NCBI GenBank assembly: GCA_032718475.1
Contig: JAUCBJ010006292.1
Location: forward strand, 1-41,867
DNA: 41,867 bases
Direction of reading: 5' to 3'
Source of the DNA: Nemertoderma westbladi
Lineage: Eukaryota; Animalia; Xenacoelomorpha
Made by a program: the position numbers and the translations under genes. Positions 607-33,797 of this stretch are shown here, piece by piece; the stretch's first letter is position 1, and every line of letters begins with the position of its first letter. The notes under the pieces are model-generated. The model had not been told where the DNA came from and did not search any database. It saw only the letters and a program-made list of their open reading frames with translations.

Positions 607-810
607 ATGGTAAAGCCTCCAGGTTATAGTAAGGAGTTGATGTGCAGCAATGCGGCAAAACCGACTCCACGTCTCGCCCATAAGACCTTGTTGATACTGA
701 GTATCGCTCAACTTGGTCTGGCTGTCTTCGTCATTGCCATCGCCCATGCTGCCATGACTGTTGTCAAGGGAAGATGGGTCTCATGCGATGCAATGGCAGC
801 TGGCATCCTG
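607..810 (+). CDS. MS4A-like coding exon 1 (N-tail, TM1, start of TM2)
   Basis: aagATGG start; MVKPPGYSKELM...AMAAGIL; donor CTG|GTATGT at 811. An upstream exon cannot be excluded because the ATG directly follows ttctccaag. Confidence 0.8.
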
Positions 811-3800
811 GTATGTAATGTATATATAATGCAGCTTCAATGCAGAATGTTGATAGTATTTAGTAGTAGTATGTACTGTGCTGCGTAATTTTATTATAAT
901 AAAACTTATAAAACTGTTGCTTCTTTAGGACACGAAATTATTTACAAACTCTCTGTAGAAAATACAGATGCATTTAAATAGGCGGAATTTTATACAATAT
1001 ACAGACAAAAAGCATTACATTAATACCGGTAACTGAAAATGAAATACGGTATCTCCTCTCTTCTGGAGGGTGCGAAAAAGGGGTTTTTTATCTCACAAAG
1101 CATTTCCCACAATAATTTGTTTAATTAATTCGAATAAATAGCTGCTGTATTTTTTTAATGCTCTATTTTATATTTCAGTTTGTCATTACTGCTGTGGTGG
1201 GAATTATTGCCTCTCAACGAAAGACAAGAGGAATTGTAAGTTACAATAAATTCATGTACCAAATTAGAAATTGAAGTAAAAACTTGAGGAAACATTAATT
1301 TTAGGCAATATTATATTAAATTCAAGCACATAAAGTAAAAACTCGTACCTGTAGGTATTCAAGTATAGAAAGAAAGAACTGACAAGCAACGGACCTGGAG
1401 TTTGCAAGCAATCAGTCAGCTGACGGCAGTTACCTGATTGGTAGATTTCGCCCCGCAGGTGAAGGCATTGTCAAGAGGCCAAGTCAGTAAATTTCACTAA
1501 AGAAAAATCCCAAAGGACGAATTAAATAGTAATGTATTGAAGAGAGACGTGTACTACTGTATAACTAGGTCAGGGGTTGAGTGAATTCTTAGACCGCGAG
1601 TATTCTTAGCCCGCGGGTATTCTTAGCCCGCGAGTATTCTTAGCCCGCGAGTATTCTTAGCCCGCGAGTTAGTAAAGGAGCAGGTGAGTAAAGGAGCAGG
1701 TTTCTTGGGCGTATTGTGGGAACCAAAACAATAAACTTTATTGTTTTGCGGGCTAAGAATACTCGCGGTCTAAAAATACTCGCGGGCTAAGAATTCCTGA
1801 GACCAGCTCAGGCGGGCAGCAGCATCACAAACGCGTTTCGGCCTTTTGATGACTGACTGTTTTGCGTGCGTATATAAAACATGGCCGCAAAGGTTGTCGT
1901 GCTACGTGTAGAATATGCCGCTTACAACAATATTACTGATTAAACAAAATATATTTTATTATAATTCTAGATCATTGCGGTGCTTGTGTTGACTATTCTG
2001 AGTACTATTGTACTTTGCGTCGTTGGAGGGCTGACCTTTCGTCATATTAAAACCATCAACCGTGCTGAAAGGTAAGATATTAAAACCATCAACCGTGCTG
2101 AAAGGTAAGATATTAAAACCATCAACCGTGCTGAAAGGTAAGATATCAAAACCATCAACCGTGCTGAAAGGTAAGATATTAAAACCATCAACCATGCTGA
2201 AAGGTAAGATATTAAAACCATCAACCGTGCTGAAAGGTAAGATATTAAAACCATCAACCGTGCTGAAAGGTAAGATATTAAAACCATCAACCGTGCTGAG
2301 GTAAGATATTAAAACCATCAACCGTGCTGAAAGGTAAGATATTCAAACCATCAACCGTGCTGAGGTAAGATATTAAAACCATCAACCGTGCTGAGGTAAG
2401 ATATTAAAACCATCAACCGTGCTGAAATGTAAGATATTAAAACCATCAACCGTGCTGAGGTAAGATATTAAAACCATCAACCGTGCTGAGGTAAGATATT
2501 AAAACCATCAACCGTGCTGAGGTAAGATATTAAAACCTTCAACCGTGCTGAGGTAAGATATTAAAACCATCAACCGTGCTGAAAGGTAAGATATTAAAAC
2601 CATCAACCGTGCTGAGGTAAGATATTAAAACCATCAACCGTGCTGAGGTAAGATATTAAAACCATCAACCGTACTGAGGTAAGATATTAAAACCTTCAAC
2701 CGTGCTGAGGTAAGATATTAAAACCATCAACCGTGCTGAAAGGTAAGATATTAAAACCATCAACCGTGCTGAGGTAAGATATTAAAACCATCAACCGTGC
2801 TGAAAGTTAAGATGTTAAAACCATCAACCGTGCTGAGGTAAGATATTAAAACCATCAACCGTGCTGAAAGGTAAGATATTAAAACCTTCAACCGTGCTGA
2901 GGTAAGATATTAAAACCATCAACCGTGCTGAAAGGTAAGATATTAAAACCATCAACCGTGCTGAGGTAAGATATTAAAACCATCAACCGTGCTGAGGTAA
3001 GATATTAAAACCTTCAACCGTGCTGAGGTAAGATATTAAAACCATCAAACGTGCTGAGGTAAGATATTAAAACCATCAACCGTGCTGAAAGGTAAGATAT
3101 TAAAACAATCAACCGTGGTGCTGAAAGGTAAGATATTAAAACCATCAACCATGCTGAAAGGTTAAGATATTAAAACCACCCATCGTGCCGAAAGGTAAGT
3201 TATTAAAACCATCAACCGTGCTGAAAGGTTAAGATATTAAAACCATCAACCGTGCTGAAAGGTAAGATATTAAAACCATCAACCGTGCTGAGGTAAGATA
3301 TTAAAACCATCAACCGTGCTGAAAGGTAAGATATTAAAACCATCAACCGTGCTGAAAGGTAAGATATTAAAACCATCAACCGTGCTGAGGTAAGATTAAG
3401 ATATTAAAACCATCAACCGTGCTGAAAGGTAAGGTATTAAAACCATCAACAGTGCTGAAAGGTAAGATATTAAAACCATCAACCGTGCTGAAAGGTAAGA
3501 TATTAAAACCATCAATCGTGCCGAAAGGTAAGATATTAAAACCATCAACCGTGCTGAAAGGTAAGATATTAAAACCATCAACCGTGCTGAAAGGTAAAAT
3601 ATTAAAACCATCAGCCGTGCTGAAAGGTAAGATATTAAAACCATCAACCGTGCTGAAAGGTAAAATATTAAAACCATCAGCCGTGCTGAGGTAAGATATT
3701 AAAACCATCAACCGTGCTGAGGTAAGATATTAAAACCATCAACCGTGCTGAGGTAAGATATTAAAACCATCAACCGTGCTGAGGTAAGATTAAGATATTA

Positions 3801-6800
3801 AAACCATCAACCGTGCTGAAAGGTAAGGTATTAAAACCATCAACAGTGCTGAAAGGTAAGATATTAAAACCATCAACCGTGCTGAAAGGTAAGATATTAA
3901 AACCATCAACCGTGCTGAAAGGTAAGATATTAAAACCATCAACCGTGCTGAGGTAAGATATTAAAACCATCAATCGTGCTGAAAGGTAAGATATTAAAAC
4001 CATCAACCATGCTGAGGTAAGATATTAAAACCATTAATCGTGCTGAAAGGTAAGATATTAAAACCATCAACCATGCTGAAAGGTTAAGATATTAAAACCA
4101 TCAATCGTGCCGAAAGGTAAGATATTAAAACCATCAACCGTGCTGAAAGGTAAGATATTAAAACCATCAACCGTGCTGAAAGGTAAAATATTAAAACCAT
4201 CAGCCGTGCTGAGGTAAGATATTAAAACCATCAACCGTGCTGAGGTAAGATATTAAAACCATCAATCGTGCTGAAAGGTAAGATATTAAAACCATCAACC
4301 ATGCTGAAAGGTTAAGATATTAAAACCATCAATCGTGCCGAAAGGTAAGATATTAAAACCATCAACCGTGCTGAAAGGTAAGATATTAAAACCATCAACC
4401 GTGCTGAAAGATTAAGATATTAAAACCATCGACCGTGCTGAAAGGTAAGCTATTAAAACCATCAACCGTGCTGAAAGGTAAGATATTAAAACCATCAACC
4501 GTGCTGAAAGGTAAGATATTAAAACCATCAACCGTGCTGAAAGGTAAGATATTAAAACCATCAACCGTGCAGAAAGGTATGATATTAAAACCATCAACCG
4601 TGCTGAGGTAAGATATTAAAACCATCAACCGTGCTGAAAGGTAAGATATTAAAACCATCAACCGTGCTGAAAGGTAAGATATTAAAACCATCAACCGTGC
4701 TGAGGTAAGATATTAAAACCATCAATCGTGCTGAAAGGTAAGATATTAAAACCATCAACCATGCGGAAAGGTTAAGATATTAAAACCACCCATCGTGCCG
4801 AAAGGTAAGATATTAAAACCATCAACCGTGTTGAAAGGTTAAGATATTAAAACCATCAACCGTGCTGAAAGGTAAGATATTAAAACCATCAACCGTGCTG
4901 AAAGGTAAGATATTAAAACCATCAACCGTGCTGAGGTAAGATTAAGATATTAAAACCATCAACCGTGCTGAAAGGTAAGATATTAAAACCATCAACCGTG
5001 CTGAAAGGTAAGATATTAAAACCATCAACCGTGCTGAGGTAAGATATTAAAACCATCAACCGTGCTGAAAGGTAAGATATTAAAACCATCAACCGTGCTG
5101 AGGTAAGATATTAAAACCATCAACCGTGCTGAGGTAAGATATTAAAACCTTCAACCGTGCTGAGGTAAGATATTAAAACCATCAAACGTGCTGAGGTAAG
5201 ATATTAAAACCATCAACCGTGCTGAAAGGTAAGATATTAAAACCATCAACCGTGCTGAAAGGTAAGATATTAAAACCATCAACCGTGCTGAGGTAAGATT
5301 AAGATATTAAAACCATCAACCGTGCTGAAAGGTAAGATATTAAAACCATCAACCGTGCTGAAAGGTAAGATATTAAAACCTTCAACCGTGCTGAGGTAAG
5401 ATATTAAAACCATCAACCGTGCTGAAAGGTAAGATATTAAAACCATCAACCGTGCTGAAAGGTAAGATATTAAAACCATCAACCGTGCTGAGGTAAGATA
5501 TTAAAACCATCAATCGTGCTGAAAGGTAAGATATTAAAACCATCAACCATGCTGAGGTAAGATATTAAAACCATTAATCGTGCTGAAAGGTAAGATATTA
5601 AAACCATCAACCATGCTGAAAGGTTAAGATATTAAAACCATCAATCGTGCCGAAAGGTAAGATATTAAAACCATCAACCGTGCTGAAAGGTAAGATATTA
5701 AAACCATCAACCGTGCTGAAAGGTAAAATATTAAAACCATCAGCCGTGCTGAGGTAAGATATTAAAACCATCAACCGTGCTGAGGTAAGATATTAAAACC
5801 ATCAATCGTGCTGAAAGGTAAGATATTAAAACCATCAACCATGCTGAAAGGTTAAGATATTAAAACCATCAATCGTGCCGAAAGGTAAGATATTAAAACC
5901 ATCAACCGTGCTGAAAGGTAAGATATTAAAACCATCAACCGTGCTGAAAGATTAAGATATTAAAACCATCGACCGTGCTGAAAGGTAAGCTATTAAAACC
6001 ATCAACCGTGCTGAAAGGTAAGATATTAAAACCATCAACCGTGCTGAAAGGTAAGATATTAAAACCATCAACCGTGCTGAAAGGTAAGATATTAAAACCA
6101 TCAACCGTGCAGAAAGGTATGATATTAAAACCATCAACCGTGCTGAGGTAAGATATTAAAACCATCAACCGTGCTGAAAGGTAAGATATTAAAACCATCA
6201 ACCGTGCTGAAAGGTAAGATATTAAAACCATCAACCGTGCTGAGGTAAGATATTAAAACCATCAATCGTGCTGAAAGGTAAGATATTAAAACCATCAACC
6301 ATGCGGAAAGGTTAAGATATTAAAACCACCCATCGTGCCGAAAGGTAAGATATTAAAACCATCAACCGTGTTGAAAGGTTAAGATATTAAAACCATCAAC
6401 CGTGCTGAAAGGTAAGATATTAAAACCATCAACCGTGCTGAAAGGTAAGATATTAAAACCATCAACCGTGCTGAGGTAAGATTAAGATATTAAAACCATC
6501 AACCGTGCTGAAAGGTAAGATATTAAAACCATCAACCGTGCTGAAAGGTAAGATATTAAAACCATCAACCGTGCTGAGGTAAGATATTAAAACCATCAAC
6601 CGTGCTGAAAGGTAAGATATTAAAACCATCAACCGTGCTGAGGTAAGATATTAAAACCATCAACCGTGCTGAGGTAAGATATTAAAACCTTCAACCGTGC
6701 TGAGGTAAGATATTAAAACCATCAAACGTGCTGAGGTAAGATATTAAAACCATCAACCGTGCTGAAAGGTAAGATATTAAAACCATCAACCGTGCTGAAA

Positions 6801-9800
6801 GGTAAGATATTAAAACCATCAACCGTGCTGAGGTAAGATTAAGATATTAAAACCATCAACCGTGCTGAAAGGTAAGATATTAAAACCATCAACCGTGCTG
6901 AAAGGTAAGATATTAAAACCTTCAACCGTGCTGAGGTAAGATATTAAAACCATCAACCGTGCTGAAAGGTAAGATATTAAAACCATCAACCGTGCTGAGG
7001 TAAGATATTAAAACCATCAACCGTGCTGAGGTAAGATATTAAAACCTTCAACCGTGCTGAGGTAAGATAGTAAAACCATCAAACGTGCTGAGGTAAGATA
7101 TTAAAACCATCAACCGTGCTGAAAGGTAAGATATTAAAACCATCAACCGTGGTGCTGAAAGGTAAGATATTAAAACCATCAACCATGCTGAAAGGTTAAG
7201 ATATTAAAACCACCCATCGTGCCGAAAGGTAAGATATTAAAACCATCAACCGTGCTGAAAGGTTAAGATATTAAAACCATCAACCGTGCTGAAAGGTAAG
7301 ATATTAAAACCATCAACCGTGCTGAGGTAAGATATTAAAACCATCAACCGTGCTGAAAGGTAAGATATTAAAACCATCAACCGTGCTGAAAGGTAAGATA
7401 TTAAAACCATCAACCGTGCTGAGGTAAGATTAAGATATTAAAACCATCAACCGTGCTGAAAGGTAAGGTATTAAAACCATCAACAGTGCTGAAAGGTAAG
7501 ATATTAAAACCATCAACCGTGCTGAAAGGTAAGATATTAAAACCATCAATCGTGCCGAAAGGTAAGATATTAAAACCATCAACCGTGCTGAAAGGTAAAA
7601 TATTAAAACCATCAGCCGTGCTGAGGTAAGATATTAAAACCATCAACCGTGCTGAGGTAAGATATTAAAACCATCAACCGTGCTGAGGTAAGATTAAGAT
7701 ATTAAAACCATCAACCGTGCTGAAAGGTAAGGTATTAAAACCATCAACAGTGCTGAAAGGTAAGATATTAAAACCATCAACCGTGCTGAAAGGTAAGATA
7801 TTAAAACCATCAACCGTGCTGAAAGGTAAGATATTAAAACCATCAACCGTTCTGAGGTAAGATATTAAAACCATCAACCGTGCTGAAAGGTAAGATATTA
7901 AAACCACCCATCGTGCCGAAAGGTAAGATATTAAAACCATCAACCGTGCTGAAAGGTTAAGATATTAAAACCATCAACCGTGCTGAAAGGTAAGATATTA
8001 AAACCACCCATCGTGCCGAAAGGTAAGATATTAAAACCACCCATCGTGCCGAAAGGTAAGATATTAAAACCATAAACCGTGCTGAAAGGTTAAGATATTA
8101 AAACCATCAACCGTGCTGAAAGGTAAGATATTAAAACCATCAACCGTGCTGAAAGGTTAAGATATTAAAACCATCAACCGTGCTGAAAGGTAAGATATTA
8201 AAACCACCCATCGTGCCGAAAGGTAAGATATTAAAACCATCAACCGTGCTGAAAGGTTAAGATATTAAAACCATCAACCGTGCTGAAAGGTAAGATATTA
8301 AAACCATCAACCGTGCTGAGGTAAGATATTAAAACCATCAACCGTGCTGAAAGGTAAGATATTAAAACCATCAACCGTGCTGAAAGGTAAGATATTAAAA
8401 CCATCAACCGTGCTGAGGTAAGATTAAGATATTAAAACCATCAACCGTGCTGAAAGGTAAGGTATTAAAACCATCAACAGTGCTGAAAGGTAAGATATTA
8501 AAACCATCAACCGTGCTGAAAGGTAAGATATTAAAACCATCAATCGTGCCGAAAGGTAAGATATTAAAACCATCAACCGTGCTGAAAGGTAAAATATTAA
8601 AACCATCAGCCGTGCTGAGGTAAGATATTAAAACCATCAACCGTGCTGAGGTAAGATATTAAAACCATCAACCGTGCTGAGGTAAGATATTAAAACCATC
8701 AACCGTGCTGAGGTAAGATTAAGATATTAAAACCATCAACCGTGCTGAAAGGTAAGGTATTAAAACCATCAACAGTGCTGAAAGGTAAGATATTAAAACC
8801 ATCAACCGTGCTGAAAGGTAAGATATTAAAACCATCAACCGTGCTGAAAGGTAAGATATTAAAACCATCAACCGTTCTGAGGTAAGATATTAAAACCATC
8901 AACCGTGCTGAAAGGTAAGATATTAAAATCATCAACCGTGCTGAAAGGTAATATATTAAAACTATCAACCGTGCTGAGGTAAGATATTAAAACCTTCAAC
9001 CGTGCTGAGGTAAGATATTAAAACCATCAACCGTGCTGAAAGGTAAGATATTAAAACCATCAACCGTGCTGAAAGGTAAGATATTAAAACCACCAACCGT
9101 GCTGAGGTAAGATATTAAAACCACCAACCGTGCTGAGGTAAGATATTAAAACCATCAACCGTGCTGAGGTAAGATATTAAAACCATCAACCGTGCTGAAA
9201 GGTAAGATATTAAAACCATCAACCGTGCTGAGGTAAGATATTAAAACCATCAACCGTGCTGAGGTAAGATATTAAAACCATCAATCGTGCTGAAAGGTAA
9301 GATATTAAAACCATCAACCATGCTGAGGTAAGATATTAAAACCACCAACCGTGCTGAGGTAAGATATTAAAACCATCAACCGTGCTGAAAGGTAAGATAT
9401 TAAAACCATCAACCGTGCTGAGGTAAGATATTAAAACCATCAACCGTGCTGAGGTAAGATATTAAAACTATCAACCGTGCTGAGGTAAGATATTAAAACC
9501 TTCAACCGTGCTGAGGTAAGATATTAAAACCATCAACCGTGCTGAAAGGTAAGATATTAAAACCATCAACCGTGCTGAAAGGTAAGATATTAAAACCATC
9601 AACCGTGCTGAAAGGTAAGATATTAAAACCATCAACCGTTCTGAGGTAAGATATTAAAACCATCAACCGTGCTGAAAGGTAAGATATTAAAACCATCAAC
9701 CGTGCTGAGGTAAGATTAAGATATTAAAACCATCAACCGTGCTGAAAGGTAAGGTATTAAAACCATCAACAGTGCTGAAAGGTAAAATATTAAAACCATC

Positions 9801-12800
9801 AGCCGTGCTGAGGTAAGATATTAAAACCATCAACCGTGCTGAGGTAAGATATTAAAACCATCAATCGTGCTGAAAGGTAAGATATTAAAACCATCAACCA
9901 TGCTGAAAGGTTAAGATATTAAAACCATCAATCGTGCCGAAAGGTAAGATATTAAAACCATCAACCGTGCTGAAAGGTAAGATATTAAAACCATCAACCG
10001 TGCTGAAAGATTAAGATATTAAAACCATCAACCGTGCTGAAAGGTAAGATATTAAAACCATCAACCGTGCTGAAAGGTAAGATATTAAAACCATCAACCG
10101 TGCTGAAAGGTAAGATATTAAAACCATCAACCGTGCTGAAAGGTAAGATATTAAAACCATCAACCGTGCAGAAAGGTATGATATTAAAACCATCAACCGT
10201 GCTGAGGTAAGATATTAAAACCATCAACCGTGCTGAAAGGTAAGATATTAAAACCATCAACCGTGCTGAAAGGTAAGATATTAAAACCATCAACCGTGCT
10301 GAGGTAAGATATTAAAACCATCAATCGTGCTGAAAGGTAAGATATTAAAACCATCAACCATGCGGAAAGGTTAAGATATTAAAACCACCCATCGTGCCGA
10401 AAGGTAAGATATTAAAACCATCAACCGTGTTGAAAGGTTAAGATATTAAAACCATCAACCGTGCTGAAAGGTAAGATATTAAAACCATCAACCGTGCTGA
10501 AAGGTAAGATATTAAAACCATCAACCGTGCTGAGGTAAGATTAAGATATTAAAACCATCAACCGTGCTGAAAGATAAGATATTAAAACCATCAACCGTGC
10601 TGAAAGGTAAGATATTAAAACCATCAACCGTGCTGAGGTAAGATATTAAAACCATCAACCGTGCTGAAAGGTAAGATATTAAAACCATCAACCGTGCTGA
10701 GGTAAGATATTAAAACCATCAACCGTGCTGAGGTAAGATATTAAAACCTTCAACCGTTCTGAGGTAAGATATTAAAACCATCAAACGTGCTGAGGTAAGA
10801 TATTAAAACCATCAACCGTGCTGAAAGGTAAGATATTAAAACCATCAACCGTGCTGAAAGGTAAGATATTAAAACCATCAACCGTGCTGAGGTAAGATTA
10901 AGATATTAAAACCATCAACCGTGCTGAAAGGTAAGATATTAAAACCATCAACCGTGCTGAAAGGTAAGATATTAAAACCTTCAACCGTGCTGAGGTAAGA
11001 TATTAAAACCATCAACCGTGCTGAAAGGTAAGATATTAAAACCATCAACCGTGCTGAGGTAAGATATTAAAACCATCAACCGTGCTGAGGTAAGATATTA
11101 AAACCTTCAACCGTGCTGAGGTAAGATATTAAAACCATCAAACGTGCTGAGGTAAGATATTAAAACCATCAACCGTGCTGAAAGGTAAGATATTAAAACC
11201 ATCAACCGTGGTGCTGAAAGGTAAGATATTAAAACCATCAACCATGCTGAAAGGTTAAGATATTAAAACCACCCATCGTGCCGAAAGGTAAGATATTAAA
11301 ACCATCAACCGTGCTGAAAGGTTAAGATATTAAAACCATCAACCGTGCTGAAAGGTAAGATATTAAAACCATCAACCGTGCTGAGGTAAGATATTAAAAC
11401 CATCAACCGTGCTGAAAGGTAAGATATTAAAACCATCAACCGTGCTGAAAGGTAAGATATTAAAACCATCAACCGTGCTGAGGTAAGATTAAGATATTAA
11501 AACCATCAACCGTGCTGAAAGGTAAGGTATTAAAACCATCAACAGTGCTGAAAGGTAAGATATTAAAACCATCAACCGTGCTGAAAGGTAAGATATTAAA
11601 ACCATCAATCGTGCCGAAAGGTAAGATATTAAAACCATCAACCGTGCTGAAAGGTAAGATATTAAAACCATCAACCGTGCTGAAAGGTAAAATATTAAAA
11701 CCATCAGCCGTGCTGAAAGGTAAGATATTAAAACCATCAACCGTGCTGAAAGGTAAAATATTAAAACCATCAGCCGTGCTGAGGTAAGATATTAAAACCA
11801 TCAACCGTGCTGAGGTAAGATATTAAAACCATCAACCGTGCTGAGGTAAGATATTAAAACCATCAACCGTGCTGAGGTAAGATTAAGATATTAAAACCAT
11901 CAACCGTGCTGAAAGGTAAGGTATTAAAACCATCAACACTGCTGAAAGGTAAGATATTAAAACCATCAACCGTGCTGAGGTAAGATATTAAAACCATCAA
12001 TCGTGCTGAAAGGTAAGATATTAAAACCATCAACCATGCTGAGGTAAGATATTAAAACCATTAATCGTGCTGAAAGGTAAGATATTAAAACCATCAACCA
12101 TGCTGAAAGGTTAAGATATTAAAACCATCAATCGTGCCGAAAGGTAAGATATTAAAACCATCAACCGTGCTGAAAGGTAAGATATTAAAACCATCAACCG
12201 TGCTGAAAGGTAAAATATTAAAACCATCAGCCGTGCTGAGGTAAGATATTAAAACCATCAACCGTGCTGAGGTAAGATATTAAAACCATCAATCGTGCTG
12301 AAAGGTAAGATATTAAAACCATCAACCATGCTGAAAGGTTAAGATATTAAAACCATCAATCGTGCCGAAAGGTAAGATATTAAAACCATCAACCGTGCTG
12401 AAAGGTAAGATATTAAAACCATCAACCGTGCTGAAAGATTAAGATATTAAAACCATCAACCGTGCTGAAAGGTAAGATATTAAAACCATCAACCGTGCTG
12501 AAAGGTAAGATATTAAAACCATCAACCGTGCTGAAAGGTAAGATATTAAAACCATCAACCGTGCTGAAAGGTAAGATATTAAAACCATCAACCGTGCAGA
12601 AAGGTATGATATTAAAACCATCAACCGTGCTGAGGTAAGATATTAAAACCATCAACCGTGCTGAAAGGTAAGATATTAAAACCATCAACCGTGCTGAAAG
12701 GTAAGATATTAAAACCATCAACCGTGCTGAGGTAAGATATTAAAACCATCAATCGTGCTGAAAGGTAAGATATTAAAACCATCAACCATGCGGAAAGGTT

Positions 12801-15800
12801 AAGATATTAAAACCACCCATCGTGCCGAAAGGTAAGATATTAAAACCATCAACCGTGTTGAAAGGTTAAGATATTAAAACCATCAACCGTGCTGAAAGGT
12901 AAGATATTAAAACCATCAACCGTGCTGAAAGGTAAGATATTAAAACCATCAACCGTGCTGAGGTAAGATTAAGATATTAAAACCATCAACCGTGCTGAAA
13001 GGTAAGATATTAAAACCATCAACCGTGCTGAAAGGTAAGATATTAAAACCATCAACCGTGCTGAAAGGTAAGATATTAAAACCATCAACCGTGCTGAGGT
13101 AAGATATTAAAACCATCAACCGTGCTGAAAGGTGAGATATTAAAACCATCAACCGTGCTGAAAGGTAAGATATTAAAACCATCAACCGTGCTCAGGTAAG
13201 ATTAAGATATTAAAACCTTCAACCGTGCTGAGGTAAGATATTAAAACCATCAACCGTGCTGAAAGGTAAGATATTAAAACCATCAACCGCGGTGAAAGGT
13301 AAGATATTAAAACCATCAACCGTGCTGAAAGGTGAGATATTAAAACCATCAACCGTGCTGAGGTAAGATATTAAAACCATCAACCGTGCTGAGGTAAGAT
13401 ATTAAAACCTTCAACCGTGCTGAGGTAAGATATTAAAACCATCAACCGAGCTGAAAGGTAAGATATTAAAACCATCAACCGTGCTGAAAGGTTAAGATAT
13501 TAAAACCATCAATCGTGCTGAAAGGTAAGATATTAAAACCATCAACCGTGCTGAAAGGTAAGATATTAAAACCTTCAACCGTGCTGAGGTAAGATATTAA
13601 AACCATCAACCGTGCTGAAAGGTAAGATATTAAAACCATCAACCGTGCTGAGGTAAGATATTAAAACCATCAACCGTGCTGAGGTAAGATATTAAAACCA
13701 TCAACCGTACTGAGGTAAGATATTAAAACCTTCAACCGTGCTGAGGTAAGATATTAAAACCATCAACCGTGCTGAAAGGTAAGATATTAAAACCATCAAC
13801 CGTGCTGAGGTAAGATATTAAAACCATCAACCGTGCTGAAAGTTAAGATGTTAAAACCATCAACTGTGCTGAGGTAAGATATTAAAACCATCAACCGTGC
13901 TGAAAGGTAAGATATTAAAACCTTCAACCGTGCTGAGGTAAGATATTAAAACCATCAACCGTGCTGAAAGGTAAGATATTAAAACCATCAACCGTGCTGA
14001 GGTAAGATATTAAAACCATCAACCGTGCTGAGGTAAGATATTAAAACCTTCAACCGTGCTGAGGTAAGATATTAAAACCATCAAACGTGCTGAGGTAAGA
14101 TATTAAAACCATCAACCGTGCTGAAAGGTAAGATATTAAAACCATCAACCGTGGTGCTGAAAGGTAAGATATTAAAACCATCAACCATGCTGAAAGGTTA
14201 AGATATTAAAACCACCCATCATGCCGAAAGGTAAGATATTAAAACCATCAACCGTGCTGAAAGGTTAAGATATTAAAACCATCAACCGTGCTGAAAGGTA
14301 AGATATTAAAACCATCAACCGTGCTGAGGTAAGATATTAAAACCATCAACCGTGCTGAAAGGTAAGATATTAAAACCATCAACCGTGCTGAAAGGTAAGA
14401 TATTAAAACCATCAACCGTGCCGAGGTAAGATTAAGATATTAAAACCATCAACCGTGCTGAAAGGTAAGGTATTAAAACCATCAACAGTGCTGAAAGGTA
14501 AGATATTAAAACCATCAACCGTGCTGAAAGGTAAGATATTAAAACCATCAATCGTGCCGAAAGGTAAGATATTAAAACCATCAACCGTGCTGAAAGGTAA
14601 GATATTAAAACCATCAACCGTGCTGAAAGGTAAAATATTAAAACCATCAGCCGTGCTGAAAGGTAAGATATTAAAACCATCAACCGTGCTGAAAGGTAAA
14701 ATATTAAAACCATCAGCCGTGCTGAGGTAAGATATTAAAACCATCAACCGTGCTGAGGTAAGATATTAAAACCATCAACCGTGCTGAGGTAAGATATTAA
14801 AACCATTAACCGTGCTGAAAGGTAAGATATTAAAACCATCAACCGTGCTAAGGTAAGATTAAGATATTAAAACCATCAACCGTGCTGAAAGGTAAGGTAT
14901 TAAAACCATCAACAGTGCTGAAAGGTAAGATATTAAAACCATCAACCGTGCTGAAAGGTAAGATATTAAAACCATCAACCGTGCTGAAAGGTAAGATATT
15001 AAAACCATCAACCGTTCTGAGGTAAGATATTAAAACCATCAACCGTGCTGAAAGGTAAGATATTAAAATCATCAACCGTGCTGAAAGGTAATATATTAAA
15101 ACTATCAACCGTGCTGAGGTAAGATATTAAAACCTTCAACCGTGCTGAGGTAAGATATTAAAACCATCAACCGTGCTGAAAGGTAAGATATTAAAACCAT
15201 CAACCGTGCTGAAAGGTAAGATATTAAAACCACCAACCGTGCTGAGGTAAGATATTAAAACCACCAACCGTGCTGAGGTAAGATATTAAAACCATCAACC
15301 GTGCTGAGGTAAGATATTAAAACCATCAACCGTGCTGAGGTAAGATATTAAAACCATCAACCGTGCTGAGGTAAGATATTAAAACCATCAACCGTGCTGA
15401 AAGGTAAGATATTAAAACCATCAACCGTGCTGAGGTAAGATATTAAAACCATCAACCGTGGTGAGGTAAGATATTAAAACCATCAATCGTGCTGAAAGGT
15501 AAGATATTAAAACCATCAACCATGCTGAGGTAAGATATTAAAACAATCAATCGTGCTGAAAGGTAAGATATTAAAACCATCAACCATGCTGAAAGGTTAA
15601 GATATTAAAACCATCAATCGTGCCGAAAGGTAAGATATTAAAACCATCAACCGTGCTGAGGTAAGATATTAAAACCATCAACCGTGCTGAAAGGTAAGAT
15701 ATTAAAACCATCAACCGTGCTGAGGTAAGATATTAAAACCATCAACCGTGCTGAGGTAAGATATTAAAACCATCAATCGTGCTGAAAGGTAAGATATTAA

Positions 15801-18800
15801 AACCATCAATCGTGCTGAAAGGTAAGATATTAAAACCATCAATCGTGCTGAAAGGTAAGATATTAAAACCATCAACCATGCTGAAAGGATAAGATATTAA
15901 AACCATCAATCGTGCTGAAAGGTAAGATATTAAAACCATCAACCGTGCTGAAAGGTAAGATATTAAAACCATCAACCGTGCTGAAAGGTAAAATATTAAA
16001 ACCATCAGCCGTGCTGAGGTAAGATATTAAAACCATCAACCGTGCTGAGGTAAGATATTAAAACCATCAATCGTGCTGAAAGGTAAGATATTAAAACCAT
16101 CAACCATGCTGAAAGGTTAAGATATTAAAACCATCAATCGTGCCGAAAGGTAAGATATTAAAACCATCAACCGTGATGAAAGGTAAGATATTAAAACCAT
16201 CAACCGTGCTGAAAGGTAAGATATTAAAACCATCAACCGTGCTGAAAGGTAAGATATTAAAACCATCAACCGTGCTGAAAGGTAAGATATTAAAACCATC
16301 AACCGTGCTGAGGTAAGATATTAAAACCATCAACCGTGCTGAAAGGTAAGATATTAAAACCATCAACCGTGCTGAAAGGTATTATATTAAAACCATCAAC
16401 CGTGCTGAGGTAAGATATTAAAACCATCAACCGTGCTGAAAGGTAAGATATTAAAACCATCAACCGTGCTGAAAGGTAAGATATTAAAACCATCAACCGT
16501 GCTGAGGTAAGATATTAAAACCATCAACCGTGCTGAAAGGTAAGATATTAAAACCATCAACCGTGCCGAGGTAAGATTAAGATATTAAAACCATCAACCG
16601 TGCTGAAAGGTGAGATATTAAAACCATCAACCGTGCTGAGGTAAGATATTAAAACCATCAACCGTGCTGAGGTAAGATATTAAAACCTTCAACCGTGCTG
16701 AGGTAAGATATTAAAACCATCAACCGAGCTGAAAGGTAAGATATTAAAACCATCAACCGTGCTGAAAGGTTAAGATATTAAAACCATCAATCGTGCTGAA
16801 AGGTAAGATATTAAAACCATCAACCGTGCTGAAAGGTAAGATATTAAAACCTTCAACCGTGCTGAGGTAAGATATTAAAACCATCAACCGTGCTGAAAGG
16901 TAAGATATTAAAACCATCAACCGTGCTGAGGTAAGATATTAAAACCATCAACCGTGCTGAGGTAAGATATTAAAACCATCAACCGTACTGAGATAAGATA
17001 TTAAAACCTTCAACCGTGCTGAGGTAAGATATTAAAACCATCAACCGTGCTGAAAGGTAAGATATTAAAACCATCAACCGTGCTGAGGTAAGATATTAAA
17101 ACCATCAACCGTGCTGAAAGTTAAGATGTTAAAACCATCAACCGTGCTGAGGTAAGATATTAAAACCATCAACCGTGCTGAAAGGTAAGATATTAAAACC
17201 TTCAACCGTGCTGAGGTAAGATATTAAAACCATCAACCGTGCTGAGGTAAGATATTAAAACCATCAACCGTGCTGAAAGTTAAGATGTTAAAACCATCAA
17301 CCGTGCTGAAAGGTAAGATATTAAAACCATCAACCGTGCTGAGGTAAGATATTAAAACCATCAACCGTGCTGAGGTAAGATATTAAAACCTTCAACCGTG
17401 CTGAGGTAAGATATTAAAACCATCAAACGTGCTGAGGTAAGATATTAAAACCATCAACCGTGCTGAAAGGTAAGATATTAAAACCATCAACCGTGGTGCT
17501 GAAAGGTAAGATATTAAAACCATCAACCATGCTGAAAGGTTAAGATATTAAAACCACCCATCGTGCCGAAAGGTAAGATATTAAAACCATCAACCGTGCT
17601 GAAAGGTTAAGATATTAAAACCATCAACCGTGCTGAAAGGTAAGATATTAAAACCATCAACCGTGCTGAGGTAAGATATTAAAACCATCAACCGTGCTGA
17701 AAGGTAAGATATTAAAACCATCAACCGTGCTGAAAGGTAAGATATTAAAACCATCAACCGTGCCGAGGTAAGATTAAGATATTAAAACCATCAACCGTGC
17801 TGAAAGGTAAGGTATTAAAACCATCAACAGTGCTGAAAGGTAAGATATTAAAACCATCAACCGTGCTGAAAGGTAAGATATTAAAACCATCAATCGTGCC
17901 GAAAGGTAAGATATTAAAACCATCAACCGTGCTGAAAGGTAAGATATTAAAACCATCAACCGTGCTGAAAGGTAAAATATTAAAACCATCAGCCGTGCTG
18001 AAAGGTAAGATATTAAAACCATCAACCGTGCTGAAAGGTAAAATATTAAAACCATCAGCCGTGCTGAGGTAAGATATTAAAACCATCAACCGTGCTGAGG
18101 TAAGATATTAAAACCATCAACCGTGCTGAGGTAAGATATTAAAACCATCAACCGTGCTGAAAGGTAAGATATTAAAACCATCAACCGTGCTGAGGTAAGA
18201 TTAAGATATTAAAACCATCAACCGTGCTGAAAGGTAAGGTATTAAAACCATCAACAGTGCTGAAAGGTAAGATATTAAAACCATCAACCGTGCTGAAAGG
18301 TAAAATATTAAAACCATCAGCCGTGCTGAGGTAAGATATTAAAACCATCAACCGTGCTGAGGTAAGATATTAAAACCATCAATCGTGCTGAAAGGTAAGA
18401 TATTAAAACCATCAACCATGCTGAAAGGTTAAGATATTAAAACCATCAATCGTGCCGAAAGGTAAGATATTAAAACCATCAACCGTGCTGAAAGGTAAGA
18501 TATTAAAACCATCAACCGTGCTGAAAGATTAAGATATTAAAACCATCAACCGTGCTGAAAGGTAAGATATTAAAACCATCAACCGTGATGAAAGGTAAGA
18601 TATTAAAACCATCAACCGTGCTGAAAGGTAAGATATTAAAACCATCAACCGTGCTGAAAGGTAAGATATTAAAACCATCAACCGTGCTGAAAGGTATTAT
18701 ATTAAAACCATCAACCGTGCTGAGGTAAGATATTAAAACCATCAACCGTGCTGAAAGGTAAGATATTAAAACCATCAACCGTGCTGAAAGGTAAGATATT

Positions 18801-21800
18801 AAAACCATCAACCGTGCTGAGGTAAGATATTAAAACCATCAACCGTGCTGAAAGGTAAGATATTAAAACCATCAACCGTGCCGAGGTAAGATTAAGATAT
18901 TAAAACCATCAACCGTGCTGAAAGGTGAGATATTAAAACCATCAACCGTGCTGAGGTAAGATATTAAAACCATCAACCGTGCTGAGGTAAGATATTAAAA
19001 CCTTCAACCGTGCTGAGGTAAGATATTAAAACCATCAACCGAGCTGAAAGGTAAGATATTAAAACCATCAACCGTGCTGAAAGGTTAAGATATTAAAACC
19101 ATCAATCGTGCTGAAAGGTAAGATATTAAAACCATCAACCGTGCTGAAAGGTAAGATATTAAAACCTTCAACCGTGCTGAGGTAAGATATTAAAACCATC
19201 AACCGTGCTGAAAGGTAAGATATTAAAACCATCAACCGTGCTGAGGTAAGATATTAAAACCATCAACCGTGCTGAGGTAAGATATTAAAACCATCAACCG
19301 TACTGAGGTAAGATATTAAAACCTTCAACCGTGCTGAGGTAAGATATTAAAACCATCAACCGTGCTGAAAGGTAAGATATTAAAACCATCAACCATGCTG
19401 AGGTAAGATATTAAAACCATCAACCGTGCTGAAAGTTAAGATGTTAAAACCATCAACCGTGCTGAGGTAAGATATTAAAACCATCAACCGTGCTGAAAGG
19501 TAAGATATTAAAACCTTCAACCGTGCTGAGGTAAGATATTAAAACCATCAACCGTGCTGAAAGGTAAGATATTAAAACCATCAACCGTGCTGAGGTAAGA
19601 TATTAAAACCATCAACCGTGCTGAGGTAAGATATTAAAACCTTCAACCGTGCTGAGGTAAGATATTAAAACCATCAAACGTGCTGAGGTAAGATATTAAA
19701 ACCATCAACCGTGCTGAAAGGTAAGATATTAAAACCATCAACCGTGGTGCTGAAAGGTAAGATATTAAAACCATCAACCATGCTGAAAGGTTAAGATATT
19801 AAAACCACCCATCGTGCCGAAAGGTAAGATATTAAAACCATCAACCGTGCTGAAAGGTTAAGATATTAAAACCATCAACCGTGCTGAAAGGTAAGATATT
19901 AAAACCATCAACCGTGCTGAGGTAAGATATTAAAACCATCAACCGTGCTGAAAGGTAAGATATTAAAACCATCAACCGTGCTGAAAGGTAAGATATTAAA
20001 ACCATCAACCGTGCCGAGGTAAGATTAAGATATTAAAACCATCAACCGTGCTGAAAGGTAAGGTATTAAAACCATCAACAGTGCTGAAAGGTAAGATATT
20101 AAAACCATCAACCGTGCTGAAAGGTAAGATATTAAAACCATCAATCGTGCCGAAAGGTAAGATATTAAAACCATCACCCGTGCTGAAAGGTAAGATATTA
20201 AAACCATCAACCGTGCTGAAAGGTAAAATATTAAAACCATCAGCCGTGCTGAAAGGTAAGATATTAAAACCATCAACCGTGCTGAAAGGTAAAATATTAA
20301 AACCATCAGCCGTGCTGAGGTAAGATATTAAAACCATCAACCGTGCTGAGGTAAGATATTAAAACCATCAACCGTGCTGAGGTAAGATATTAAAACCATC
20401 AACCGTGCTGAAAGGTAAGATATTAAAACCATCAACCGTGCTGAGGTAAGATTAAGATATTAAAACCATCAACCGTGCTGAAAGGTAAGGTATTAAAACC
20501 ATCAACAGTGCTGAAAGGTAAGATATTAAAACCATCAACCGTGCTGAAAGGTAAGATATTAAAACCATCAACCGTGCTGAAAGGTAAGATATTAAAACCA
20601 TCAACCGTTCTGAGGTAAGATATTAAAACCATCAACCGTGCTGAAAGGTAAGATATTAAAATCATCAACCGTGCTGAAAGGTAATATATTAAAACTATCA
20701 ACCGTGCTGAGGTAAGATATTAAAACCTTCAACCGTGCTGAGGTAAGATATTAAAACCATCAACCGTGCTGAAAGGTAAGATATTAAAACCATCAACCGT
20801 GCTGAAAGGTAAGATATTAAAACCACCAACCGTGCTGAGGTAAGATATTAAAACCACCAACCGTGCTGAGGTAAGATATTAAAACCATCAACCGTGCTGA
20901 GGTAAGATATTAAAACCATCAACCGTGCTGAGGTAAGATATTAAAACCATCAACCGTGCTGAGGTAAGATATTAAAACCATCAACCGTGCTGAAAGGTAA
21001 GATATTAAAACCATCAACCGTGCTGAGGTAAGATATTAAAACCATCAACCGTGGTGAGGTAAGATATTAAAACCATCAATCGTGCTGAAAGGTAAGATAT
21101 TAAAACCATCAACCATGCTGAGGTAAGATATTAAAACCATCAATCGTGCTGAAAGGTAAGATATTAAAACCATCAACCATGCTGAAAGTTTAAGATATTA
21201 AAACCATCAATCGTGCCGAAAGGTAAGATATTAAAACCATCAACCGTGCTGAGGTAAGATATTAAAACCATCAACCGTGCTGAAAGGTAAGATATTAAAA
21301 CCATCAACCGTGCTGAGGTAAGATATTAAAACCATCAACCGTGCTGAGGTAAGATATTAAAACCATCAATCGTGCTGAAAGGTAAGATATTAAAACCATC
21401 AATCGTGCTGAAAGGTAAGATATTAAAACCATCAATCGTGCTGAGGTAAGATATTAAAACCATCAATCGTGCTGAAAGGTAAGATATTAAAACCATCAAT
21501 CGTGCTGAAAGGTAAGATATTAAAACCATCAATCGTGCTGAAAGGTAAGATATTAAAACCATCAACCATGCTGAAAGGTTAAGATATTAAAACCATCAAT
21601 CGTGCTGAAAGGTAAGATATTAAAACCATCAACCGTGCTGAAAGGTAAGATATTAAAACCATCAACCGTGCTGAAAGGTAAAATATTAAAACCATCAGCC
21701 GTGCTGAGGTAAGATATTAAAACCATCAACCGTGCTGAGGTAAGATATTAAAACCATCAATCGTGCTGAAAGGTAAGATATTAAAACCATCAACCATGCT

Positions 21801-24800
21801 GAAAGGTTAAGATATTAAAACCATCAATCGTGCCGAAAGGTAAGATATTAAAACCATCAACCGTGCTGAAAGGTAAGATATTAAAACCATCAACCGTGCT
21901 GAAAGATTAAGATATTAAAACCATCAACCGTGCTGAAAGGTAAGATATTAAAACCATCAACCGTGATGAAAGGTAAGATATTAAAACCATCAACCGTGCT
22001 GAAAGGTAAGATATTAAAACCATCAACCGTGCTGAAAGGTAAGATATTAAAACCATCAACCGTGCTGAAAGGTATTATATTAAAACCATCAACCGTGCTG
22101 AGGTAAGATATTAAAACCATCAACCGTGCTGAAAGGTAAGATATTAAAACCATCAACCGTGCTGAAAGGTAAGATATTAAAACCATCAACCGTGCTGAGG
22201 TAAGATATTAAAACCATCAATCGTGCTGAAAGGTAAGATATTAAAACCATCAACCATGCGGAAAGGTTAAGATATTAAAACCACCCATCGTGCCGAAAGG
22301 TAAGATATTAAAACCATCAACCGTGTTGAAAGGTTAAGATATTAAAACCATCAACCGTGCTGAAAGGTAAGATATTAAAACCATCAACCGTGCTGAAAGG
22401 TAAGATATTAAAACCATCAACCGTGCTGAGGTAAGATTAAGATATTAAAACCATCAACCGTGCTGAAAGGTAAGATATTAAAACCATCAACCGTGCTGAA
22501 AAGTAAGATATTAAAACCATCAACCGTGCTGAAAGGTAAGATATTAAAACCATCAACCGTGCTGAGGTAAGATATTAAAACCATCAACCGTGCTGAAAGG
22601 TAAGATATTAAAACCATCAACCGTGCTGAAAGGTAAGATATTAAAACCATCAACCGTGCTGAGGTAAGATTAAGATATTAAAACCATCAACCGTGCTGAA
22701 AGGTAAGGTATTAAAACCATCAACCGTGCTGAAAGGTAAGATATTAAAACCATCAACCGTGCTGGAGGTAAGATATTAAAACCATCAACCGTGCTGAAAG
22801 GTAAGATATTAAAACCATCAACCGTGCTGAAAGGTAAGATATTAAAACCATCAACCGTGCTGAGGTAAGATATTAAAACCATCAACCGTGCTGAGGTAAG
22901 ATATTAAAACCATCAACCGTGCTGAAAGGTATGATATTAAAACCATCAGCCGTGCTGAGGTAAGATATTAAAACCTTCAACCGTGCTGAGGTAAGATATT
23001 AAAACCATCAACCGTGCTGAAAGGTAAGATATTAAAACCATCAACCGTGCTGAGGTAAGATATTAAAACCTTCAACCGTGCTGAGGTAAGATATTAAAAC
23101 CATCAACCGTGCTGAAAGGTAAGATATTAAAACCATCAGCCGTGCTGAGGTAAGATATTAAAACCTTCAACCGTGCTGAGGTAAGATATTAAAACCATCA
23201 ACCGTGCTGAAAGGTAAGATATTAAAACCATCAACCGCGGTGAAAGGTAAGATATTAAAACCATCAACCGTGCTGAAAGGTGAGATATTAAAACCATCAA
23301 CCGTGCTGAGGTAAGATATTAAAACCATCAACCGTGCTGAGGTAAGATATTAAAACCTTCAACCTCAGGTAAAATATAGACCTGGAAATACTACATGACA
23401 CCTTGTATGTCCGCAATTTACCTCTTTACCATAGGCTGCCACTGTACTCAACCCTACCGTACTTGGCCGTCTTTAACCACTCGCTACAATGTAAGGATAG
23501 TGTATATTAACCATGAACCATCACGGCCACAATGATTAATTATACATTCTAGCTACTAAATTAGGTAGGACAGTTACACTCATAGAGAATTGCGACCGGT
23601 ATATTTATAGTTTATTATTGTTACTTCGAGTTATTCGATTCGAGTATTAGTTACTTCCAACCCGGAGGTTACCGGTTCGAGCCCACCTGGACGTCATTGC
23701 TGACTTCGCAAAAGCTGTGCCCAACAAACAGTTATAATAATATGAAGCCACTCATTCACCCATAACACCAATAATAAACCTTAGTTTGTATCATAAAATG
23801 TTCAATAATGTTGGTCCCTGAAGATAAAATTACACCTTAGTATTTTTATGTACAATTAAATATATAAATAAGATATAATGTTACGGGCATATAAAACGAG
23901 GAACCAAATAAATATCTGTACTTTTTATTTTTAGATATCGATACGATTATATGGATGACATCATATACCCAGATGGTTAGTATTGTATTATTGTGGGGCG
24001 AGTCAAAACTGCGAGCCATGAGCGAGCTGTTATAATTATACTATGGCCGTTTTCCAAACGTCTGTTAGTCTGTGGGGGTGTGTCCGGGTATGTGTGTGTC
24101 GGAAGCCATAATTGTCGGAAGCCAAGATCTGAATAGGCCTATGCAGTATAACTAGCCATAATAAAATTATAATTGTTCGCTAATATGGCTTGCAGCTTTT
24201 GCTGCACGAAGCAAAATTGTGTAATTCCCGTATATTTTAGAATATAAGTCACTTTTTAGATGAGCTGTTTGCCACGATTTGGGACGTTTAATAAACTTAT
24301 TTATTTTGCAGATGATCTGGTTTTCCAGGAGGGACGAATTCACATTGACTTCGGGCGATTATGTGACAGAATGCCAAACTCCGAAGGTTGCAAAGAAATG
24401 GTCAGACAAGCATTGGTCTACGTCAACTATATGCTTGACAATGTTGATATCGGACAAATGCTCGAAAATGTTGATATCGACCAAATTATGAATAACCTAA
24501 ATTTCGACGAGATATTGAACAACATGAATCTCGATGAGTTGATGGCAAATTTCGGAAATATCGATCTCGAACACTTCGATATGGAACAGGTGCAACAATT
24601 CCTCCAGGATTCAGGGTGAGTAGTTTTAGTGATTATAAGTAATAGTTGATACAAGTTCAGTTCCTGATGAGTATTGCAACAAACCTTGCTGTGTGTTTTT
24701 AATACAATTTGGCTTTTCGGTTATTTTTCTTATATATTTTTTGCTAAAACATACAGTAGGCAGGCCCCTACATAATACTGTAACAGGACGGGTTTTTGTT

Positions 24801-27569: not shown

Positions 27570-28048
27570 GTTGTGCGCACAGCTTAGTATATTGTGCGCA
27601 CAACTTAGTATCTTGTGCGCACAACTTAGTATCTTGTGCGCACAACTTAGTATCTTGTGCGCACAACTTAGTATCTTGTGCGCACAACTTAGTATCTTGT
27701 GCGCACAACTTAGTATCTTGTGCGCACAACTTAGTATCTTGTGCGCACAACTTAGTATCTTGTGCGCACAACTTAGTATCTTGTGCGCACAACTTAGTAT
27801 CTTGTGCGCACAACTTAGTATCTTGTGCGCACAACTTAGTATCTTGTGCGCACAACTTAGTATCTTGTGCGCACAACTTAGTATCTTGTGCGCACAACTT
27901 AGTATCGTGTGCGCACAACTTAGTATCGTGTGCGCACAACTTAGTATCTTGTGCGCACCACTTAGTATCTTGTGCGCACAACTTAGTATCTTGTGCGCAC
28001 AACTTAGTATCGTGTGCGCACCACTTAGTAGCTTGTGCGCACAACTTA
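27570..28048. repeat. 21-bp minisatellite CTTAGTATCTTGTGCGCACAA (about 23 copies; resumes at 28740-28800)
   Basis: Directly visible; each unit carries the 12-bp palindrome TTGTGCGCACAA. Confidence 0.98.
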
Positions 28049-28739: not shown

Positions 28740-29237
28740 TAGTATCTTGGGCGCACAACTTAGTATCTTGTGCGCACAACTTAGTATCTTGTGCCCACAA
28801 CGTATATTTTGCATGTCCCTTTAGGGGCTCCGTAATATGAGGCCTAACTAACAAAATGAATTATATTGAGCAATAAAATAATTAATTTCAGGGAGAAAGA
28901 GTATAGCGAGTTTGAATACTAAATTGTTCAGCATGCCATAAAGAGAGACTGATTTTGCTGGTTATTTGCCCGACATGGTTGACTAATTGCTGAGGTTCTG
29001 TGCCCTTGTAGTTTTAGGAGGGTAGGTGACTATTATATTACATAGGCTTAAGGTACACCCGCTCTCTACGTTGTAAGTAATGTTATAATGGGGTTCTTAG
29101 GCTATACGGTACCTCGTTAAGGGTAATCAGCTGAGCAACACAATGCAATTCGATAGCGAGGTGTGCCTTGTTGCCTTTACCACTAGTCTTCAATAAATAT
29201 ATGCCATCACATCTATCCAATGCTGAAATGATTGCGT

Positions 29238-32200: not shown

Positions 32201-32847
32201 AAGAGACTCTAGCGTACCAAATGGGACGAGCCACAAAGTAAGAGACTCTAAAAGACGAGCCACAAAGTAAGAGACACTAGCGTACCACAAAGTAAGAGAC
32301 TCTAGCGTACCAAATGGGACGAGCCACAAAGTAAGAGACTCTAAAAGACGAGCCACAAAGTAAGAGACACTAGCGTACCACAAAGTAAGAGACACTAGCG
32401 TACCACAAAGTAAGAAACACTAGCGTACCACAAGGTTAGAGACACTAGTGTACCAAATGGGACGAGCCACAAAGTAAGAGACTCTAAAAGACGAGCCACA
32501 AAGTAAGAGACACTAGCGTACCACAAAGTAAGAGACTCTAGCGTACCAAATGGGACGAGCCACAAAGTAAGAGACACTAGCGTACCAAATGGGACGAGCC
32601 ACAAAGTAAGACACTCTAGCGTACCCAATGGGACGAGCCACAAAGTAAGAGACTCTAAAAGACGAGCCACAAAGTAAGAGACACTAGCGTACCACAAAGT
32701 AGGAGACTCTAGCGTACCAAATGGGACGAGCCACAAAGTAAAAGACCCTAGCGTACCAAATGGGACGAGCCACAAAGTAAGACACTCTAGCGTACCAAAT
32801 GGGACAAGCCACAAAGTAAGAGACTCTAGCGTAGCGTACCAAATTGG
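29238..32847. repeat. 3.6-kb intergenic tandem array: 39-bp GAGCCACAAAGTAAGAGACACTAGCGTACCAAATGGGAC interspersed with 25-bp and 29-bp deletion variants
   Basis: Directly visible. Confidence 0.98.
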
Positions 32848-33627: not shown

Positions 33628-33797
33628 AAGATGGCGAACAATAATCATCTCATCAATTTGGCACATCATTGGTTGTGAGGTGTGGATGAGGACAATCTCA
33701 TTGGTTATTAGCTTGTTTGTGAGCTGGCATCTCGAATTATCTAGATTCTTCCATTCCTTCTTATATATAAACGTTGCTGACAATGATTGACTCATTC
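33628..33797 (+). promoter_or_regulatory. HSP90 proximal promoter: YY1-like site, two inverted CCAAT boxes, imperfect heat-shock element, TATA box, Inr
   Basis: AAGATGGCG at 33628; ATTGG at 33668 and 33700 (32 bp apart); cGAAt-tATCt-aGATt-cTTCc at 33733-33752; TATATAAA at 33764-33771; TCATTC Inr with its A at 33794 (TATA at -30). Confidence 0.7.

Follow-up and report, generated by a model that had tools for sequence, protein, structure and literature searches.

A 21-kb tandem array of copied exon ends and 5' splice sites in an intron of Nemertoderma westbladi, a very large donor minisatellite of a known kind

Donor Array and Host Gene

The window analysed in this study was the whole 41,867-nt contig stretch JAUCBJ010006292.1 of Nemertoderma westbladi, with positions counted from its first letter. 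It contains a predicted gene of nine exons, the third intron of which is occupied for most of its length by a tandem array (2044..23373), each unit of which copies the end of exon 3 together with the donor (5' splice site) that follows it. The exons of this gene were predicted from the sequence. Exons and array elements are all located on the + strand, and a slash in a motif marks the exon-intron junction.

Tandem Repeats Finder reported a single array at 2044-23364 (period 33, 653.5 copies, 92% matches), and an alignment-based parse resolved 654 monomers across 2044-23373 (21,330 bp). Both results are in accordance with the first-pass annotation of this DNA, which had described a satellite built from a coding exon end plus its own 5' splice site. 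Monomers are 27-37 bp long, with modal lengths of 33 and 31 bp (33 bp, n = 360; 31, n = 210; 34, n = 49; 37, n = 27; 36, n = 6; 32, n = 1; 27, n = 1), and belong to 66 distinct types, with an average divergence of 2% from unit 1. The first monomer (2044..2076) comprises 28 nt of the predicted exon-3 end followed by GTAAG, so it is coding and supplies a phase-2 donor, as had been proposed. It is identical to the modal monomer, and its type is the commonest of the array (210 of 654 units).

The donor 9-mers AAG/GTAAGA (305 copies, first donor counted) and GAG/GTAAGA (235 copies) confirmed that the two major monomer types carry a consensus donor. The motif AG/GTRAG is preserved in 565 of the 654 monomers; the earlier figure of about 650 donors thus fits the number of units, but consensus-like donors number 565. 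Outside the array, AGGTRAG has two + strand matches in the remaining 20.5 kb of the window. The 28 exon bases followed by GTAAGA occur in 194 exact copies. The array also holds 646 ATTAAA hexamers, each 20 nt upstream of a donor, which derive from the Ile-Lys codons of exon 3, while AATAAA is not present within it. No copy of the unit was found elsewhere in the window, no decayed units above shuffles were detected in the flanks on either side, and a search of metagenome contigs with a 23-nt part of the unit gave 0 matches. The array was also considered as coding sequence and rejected as such, with longest stop-free runs of just 67-117 codons across the six frames.

The predicted gene has eight GT-AG introns and one open frame of 395 amino acids (aa). 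Exon 1 (607..810) contains the ATG, the first transmembrane segment (TM1) and the start of TM2; exon 2 (1179..1235, 57 nt, phase 0-0) contains TM2; and exon 3 (1971..2071, 101 nt) contains TM3 and ends in phase 2. Downstream of the array are exon 4 (23935..23975, 41 nt), exon 5 (24312..24615, 304 nt), which encodes an acidic loop containing an internal repeat of 9 residues, exon 6 (25064..25253, 190 nt), exon 7 (25874..26066), with TM4 and a proline-rich tail, exon 8 (26274..26354, 81 nt), and the coding part of exon 9 with the stop codon (26532..26548). Introns 1 to 8 measure 368, 735, 21863, 336, 448, 620, 207, and 177 nt. Without the array, intron 3 would have approximately 566 nt, close to the 0.6 kb estimated previously; its unique remainder (23374..23934, 561 nt) ends in a pyrimidine-rich acceptor. 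No stop, frameshift or lost GT/AG was observed, and the exon coordinates, the intron sizes and the nine open exons of the first-pass annotation were correct.

Hydropathy peaks of the predicted protein were located at residues 28-46, 62-80, 87-105, and 308-326, indicating four hydrophobic segments, with a large loop between the third and the fourth, as in MS4A/CD20-like four-pass proteins. Three of these segments are encoded upstream of the array and one downstream, which fits a single four-pass protein. Pfam gave no match above the cut-off for the host exons, scanned singly, CD20 (PF04103) included. The Atlas entries for exon 1, all below 0.9 (FAM70, 0.89, 23% of members; CD20, 0.87, 14%), and for exon 7 (CD20, 0.77, 46% of members) are weak leads only. 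True MS4A genes are held to be absent from invertebrates (PMC2826416).

Among proteins of 176-2000 aa, exon 5 gave 44 candidates and no homologue; among those of 120-2000 aa, exon 1 gave 73 candidates, again with no homologue. A phmmer search with exon 5 against 1.84 billion representatives gave 66 matches, none better than 8e-10. They were rejected as homologues, none fitting the N- or C-terminal parts of the protein (best E 0.75), and are attributed solely to the short acidic repeat. Metagenome contigs searched with exon 5 yielded 126 pattern matches, 0 of them confirmed, and no match under E 0.4 was obtained among PDB sequences. Within exon 5, a decayed 27-bp coding repeat (24431-24560) gives a 9-residue acidic/hydrophobic pattern, the composition of which accounts for its matches to unrelated repeat proteins. 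In intron 6, a 27-nt stretch bounded by AG...GT (25716-25742) could be a small optional exon.

Products Expected from the Donors

The first donor, predicted to be the authentic one, is AAG/GTAAGA at 2069..2077, in phase 2. When the 2,009 GT/GC positions between 1975 and 23930 were joined to the exon-4 acceptor, four kept the frame, three of them exonic and unlike the consensus; position 2071 alone resembles a donor. Full-length protein therefore requires the most upstream donor, as the first-pass annotation had stated. Between 23377 and 23970, the exon-4 acceptor at 23935 is likewise the sole AG with which the frame set by donor 2071 is preserved through donor 23975.

An in-frame TAA (2073-2075) sits inside the first donor, so that read-through products via any later donor end at 121 aa, and this length was obtained with each later donor tried (2104, 2137, 2170, 2300, and 23368; 5/5). 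Skipping of exon 3 gives 94 aa and skipping of exon 4 gives 121 aa; the joining of exon 3 to exon 6, with exons 4 and 5 skipped, is in frame and yields 280 aa with all four hydrophobic segments retained. A stop located far upstream of later junctions leads to degradation of the RNA by nonsense-mediated decay (NMD), and transcripts from the later donors are likely removed in this way. A count of junctions from the first versus later donors, which had been proposed as a check, is confounded because the later-donor RNA carries the premature stop and is likely removed.

The limit for exon definition is 300 nt, and seven donors lie within this distance of the exon-3 acceptor. The claim that the spliceosome must choose among hundreds of donors thus holds in that the first one is required, but the contest was probably overstated. 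At a transcription rate of 1.5-3 kb per minute, transcribing intron 3 takes 7-15 minutes. RNA structure was considered as a cause of first-donor choice and rejected, the first donor being predicted to be less unpaired than the next six.

State of the Donors and of the Gene

Donor positions represent 9 of the 33 sites of the unit and hold 12 of the 44 distinct substitution alleles, with 12.0 expected (p = 1.0); copy-weighted substitution rates in the same comparison were 0.017 v 0.021 per site. Donors are retained evenly from one end of the array to the other, with 50-59 per bin of 60-66 units, and the first 11 units all retain the donor. Within the reach of this small test, donors are neither protected nor purged.

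Neutral decay of the gene was simulated in 3,000 runs per setting, assuming that the array mutates at the rate of the genome. At 2% divergence, a dead gene remained intact in 26% of runs without indels and in 5% with indels, which mildly favours a living gene.

Origin and Growth of the Array

The tetranucleotide ATAT at the start of the array (2044..2047) recurs directly after it, at 23374-23377, five bases beyond the last donor, and is a candidate microhomology; the chance of a given 4-mer match at one site is about 1%. The array contains 434 distinct 8-unit words out of 647, compared with 647 in shuffles, and its longest exact repeat spans 48 units, versus 8 or fewer in 30 shuffles. It is thus a mosaic of duplicated multi-unit blocks, in which rare variants reappear within nested blocks that also bear private changes. 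An exact tandem duplication with a 1,540-bp offset (47 monomers) is present at 3854..6998 and is a candidate for either a recent duplication or a local assembly error. Singleton units are concentrated towards the edges, with 11 of 29 found among the 40 outermost units of each end, a portion that makes up 12% of all units (p = 0.0004). Twelve further arrays occupy 6,291 of the 20,534 bp of the window that lie outside this one (31%).

Other Features of the Window

Downstream of the predicted gene, an intact Hsp90 gene (33927-34349 and 39318-41063, + strand) encodes a cytosolic, animal-type protein of 722 aa ending in MEEVD, which is at most 80% identical to the best among the matches listed (120 proteins from animals of several phyla). 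Its single GT-AG intron, of 4,968 nt, holds several minisatellites, including 49-bp repeats at 35162-35311 and 36871-37335 whose units are apparently mutual reverse complements and may form an inverted pair. Upstream of this gene, at 33730-33780, inverted GAA/TTC motifs resembling a heat-shock element are followed by a TATA-like box.

Between the two genes, a 3.6-kb array (29238-32833) of mixed 25/29/39-bp units carries 88 copies of the donor-like AAA/GTAAGA, with no adjoining exon seen. A 21-bp repeat at 27571-28048 has 23 copies with 97% match, and three further copies are found 700 bp downstream, at 28740-28801. Intron 2 of the predicted gene contains 17-bp repeats in opposite orientations (1585-1669 and 1748-1794).

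Explanations of the Array

The array probably originated when the exon-intron junction was duplicated locally, and its later growth probably involved no selection for the donors; splicing of the gene probably still takes place at the first of them. Neutral expansion fits best, as donors mutate no faster or slower than the other positions of the unit and other tandem repeats make up 31% of the remaining window. A slip between two copies of ATAT, one in exon 3 and the other located five bases inside the intron, would have given the second unit, and unequal exchange or slippage may then have copied blocks of units until the array reached 21 kb. Exon 3 would be defined across its 101 nt soon after being transcribed, minutes ahead of the exon-4 acceptor, so that the first donor would win, as in the human gene F7. 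The few transcripts made from later donors would carry a premature stop and be degraded; errors would thereby be hidden and expansion would be cheap. That the first donor wins and that errors are degraded is most likely the reason why the expansion was tolerated. A length-dependent loss of output similar to that of human ABCA7 is possible as a side effect.

Several data weigh against this explanation. The use of donor 2071 is argued by analogy from other species, and the F7 minigene data cover up to nine units (PMC1557585). Splicing of the human genes 6-16 and CBS also involves the next two pseudo-sites (PMC1557585), and in long ABCA7 alleles skipping of the next exon is increased 3- to 4-fold (PMC5954066). 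RNA structure prediction gave the first donor a mean unpaired probability of 0.33, versus 0.47-0.52 for the next six, and of 0.38 +/- 0.10 for 40 random other donors. At 0.5-1% divergence, 22-70% of the simulation runs remained intact, which makes this a weak test, and the array may owe its length to recent growth.

Some of these data are shared by the main rival explanation, a crippled allele or gene in which most of the full-length mRNA is lost to later donors, to omission of exon 3 or 4, or to transcripts terminating within the array, and in which the exons are open only because the damage is recent. The 194 exact copies of the exon end with GTAAGA, the first donor being no more accessible than the next six, the 646 ATTAAA hexamers, the truncated products of 94 and 121 aa expected from exon skipping, the proportion of runs with intact frame at low divergence and the rise of exon skipping with ABCA7 expansion (PMC5954066) all speak for such damage. 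However, the 66 unit types and the nested block duplications indicate that the array is not brand-new, yet the gene shows no stop, frameshift or lost GT/AG, and the first donor is still functional in the published cases. A crippled gene is considered rather unlikely.

The first-pass annotation had also suggested a copy-number-tunable control of expression. In its fullest form this would be a selected switch made from the gene's own exon end, in which unit number or U1 supply balances the four-pass protein, decay-bound RNA, a three-pass form of 121 aa produced by polyadenylation in the array, and a loop-shortened form of 280 aa without exons 4 and 5. Each unit offers a poly(A)-like ATTAAA 20 nt before its donor, all 646 of them behind one in-frame stop that is located inside the first donor, the exon 3-exon 6 join keeps the frame and the four hydrophobic segments, and array length correlates with splicing in ABCA7 (PMC5954066). 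Nevertheless, donor positions are no more conserved than the rest of the unit, ATTAAA corresponds to the Ile-Lys codons of the exon, any phase-2 donor with such a consensus places the TAA of GTAAG in frame, and other arrays are abundant in the window. With no signal of selection on the donors, the switch is retained as an improbable explanation.

Piecewise removal of the intron by recursive splicing at the AG/GT junctions of the units would be suggested by the AG that directly precedes each donor GT, AG/GT being the core of a recursive site. The array contains 0 YAG with a pyrimidine-rich tract, and its AAG sites have 9/20 pyrimidines upstream, compared with 12-16/20 and CAG or TAG at the eight real acceptors, which leaves this mechanism the least probable of all. 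That the array is an assembly artefact, wholly or for the greater part, is hardly more credible: the exact 1,540-bp tandem duplication points to it, but represents 7% of the length, while rare variants occur in nested blocks with private changes, singletons cluster at the edges, and the run of four A has exactly this length in 649 of 656 matches, which is unexpected from noisy reads. Very doubtful to the same degree is a foreign satellite inserted into exon 3 at ATAT, with the two ATAT as target-site duplication and the first unit replacing the old exon end. In its favour, the sequence after the array (23376-23510) is open for 44 codons in the frame of exon 3, and a phase-2 CTT/GTATGT at 23405 would give an exon of 104 nt. 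Donors of that quality, however, occur 20 times per 3,000 intronic bases, which gives a chance of about 10% for an in-phase one nearby; a foreign unit being in frame, stop-free and provided with a phase-2 consensus donor would need luck, and the window holds no other copy of the unit.

If RNA data confirm the use of the first donor, this would be the longest among the cases compared in which donor choice ignores the number of identical sites that follow, and a usable natural allele to ask whether output is affected when U1 sites or ATTAAA hexamers number in the hundreds. If the array silences the gene, it would show how simply a 33-bp slip can lead to gene loss. In both cases, such junctions are difficult to annotate, and to count with short reads.

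Comparison with Known Systems

Among the closest known systems is intron 7 of human F7, with a 37-bp variable number tandem repeat (VNTR) of 5-9 units, of which only the most upstream of the identical donors is used (PMC1557585, Borensztajn et al. 2006). Minigenes showed that inactivation of this donor moves splicing to the next one (PMC1557585). As in F7, the first unit of the N. westbladi array spans the exon-intron boundary and identical donors follow at similar spacing (37 bp in F7; 31-33 bp here). The two differ in number of units (5-9 versus 654) and in exon bases per unit (4 in F7 versus 28), and donor choice in F7 was demonstrated by minigenes, while that in the present array is predicted from sequence. 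The extreme test of exon definition proposed in the first-pass annotation is not supported as new, since the choice of the most upstream among identical donors had been demonstrated earlier with F7 minigenes (PMC1557585).

In terms of size, the nearest relative is the 25-bp VNTR of intron 18 of human ABCA7, with 12 to about 427 units and a maximum length of 10,678 bp (De Roeck et al. 2018, PMC5954066; also PMC13747324). Retention of one unit was seen, unchanged by array length; use of the donor of the second unit leads to a premature stop and NMD, and cycloheximide raised such transcripts (PMC5954066). Both genes carry a large donor-bearing array directly at an exon end, but the ABCA7 unit starts at GT, without exon sequence, and the array described here has about 1.5 times the units of the largest ABCA7 allele and is twice as long. 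No donor array larger than that of ABCA7 was found in the literature, as judged from search listings and with most subscription journals outside the coverage.

Junction-spanning minisatellites that reiterate a donor are also described in human 6-16 intron 2, CBS intron 13, LMNB2, and PDGF, with 10-25 units or pseudo-sites (PMC1557585), as compared with 654 units here. Gigantic introns of Drosophila Y-linked genes, enlarged mainly by satellite DNA, reach hundreds of kb to Mb (PMC11207136, PMC6508621); the intron studied here is likewise enlarged by a satellite, but its 21,863 nt fall short of the size that defines gigantism, and units derived from a gene's own donor are not described in the abstract- or listing-level accounts of those introns. 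Among invertebrates, the lancelet 'mirages' of Adh3, globin, troponin C, and PGBD5 are tandem duplications of exon-intron boundaries that leave splicing undisturbed (PMC3087553, PMC3902484). They resemble the N. westbladi array in that units at the edges are less homogenised, and differ from it in that the globin cases have 3-6 units and some mirages copy the acceptor side.

The sequence features of the F7 and mirage type are present in N. westbladi: a first unit spanning the boundary of a predicted exon, a reiterated donor, head-to-tail units with block turnover, and less homogenised edges. The array is a very large example of the already known junction-spanning donor minisatellites and adds no new mechanism. 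Large size and an effect of copy number have both been published for ABCA7 (PMC5954066). Its unusual feature is its size, 654 units and 21 kb, compared with about 427 units in print.

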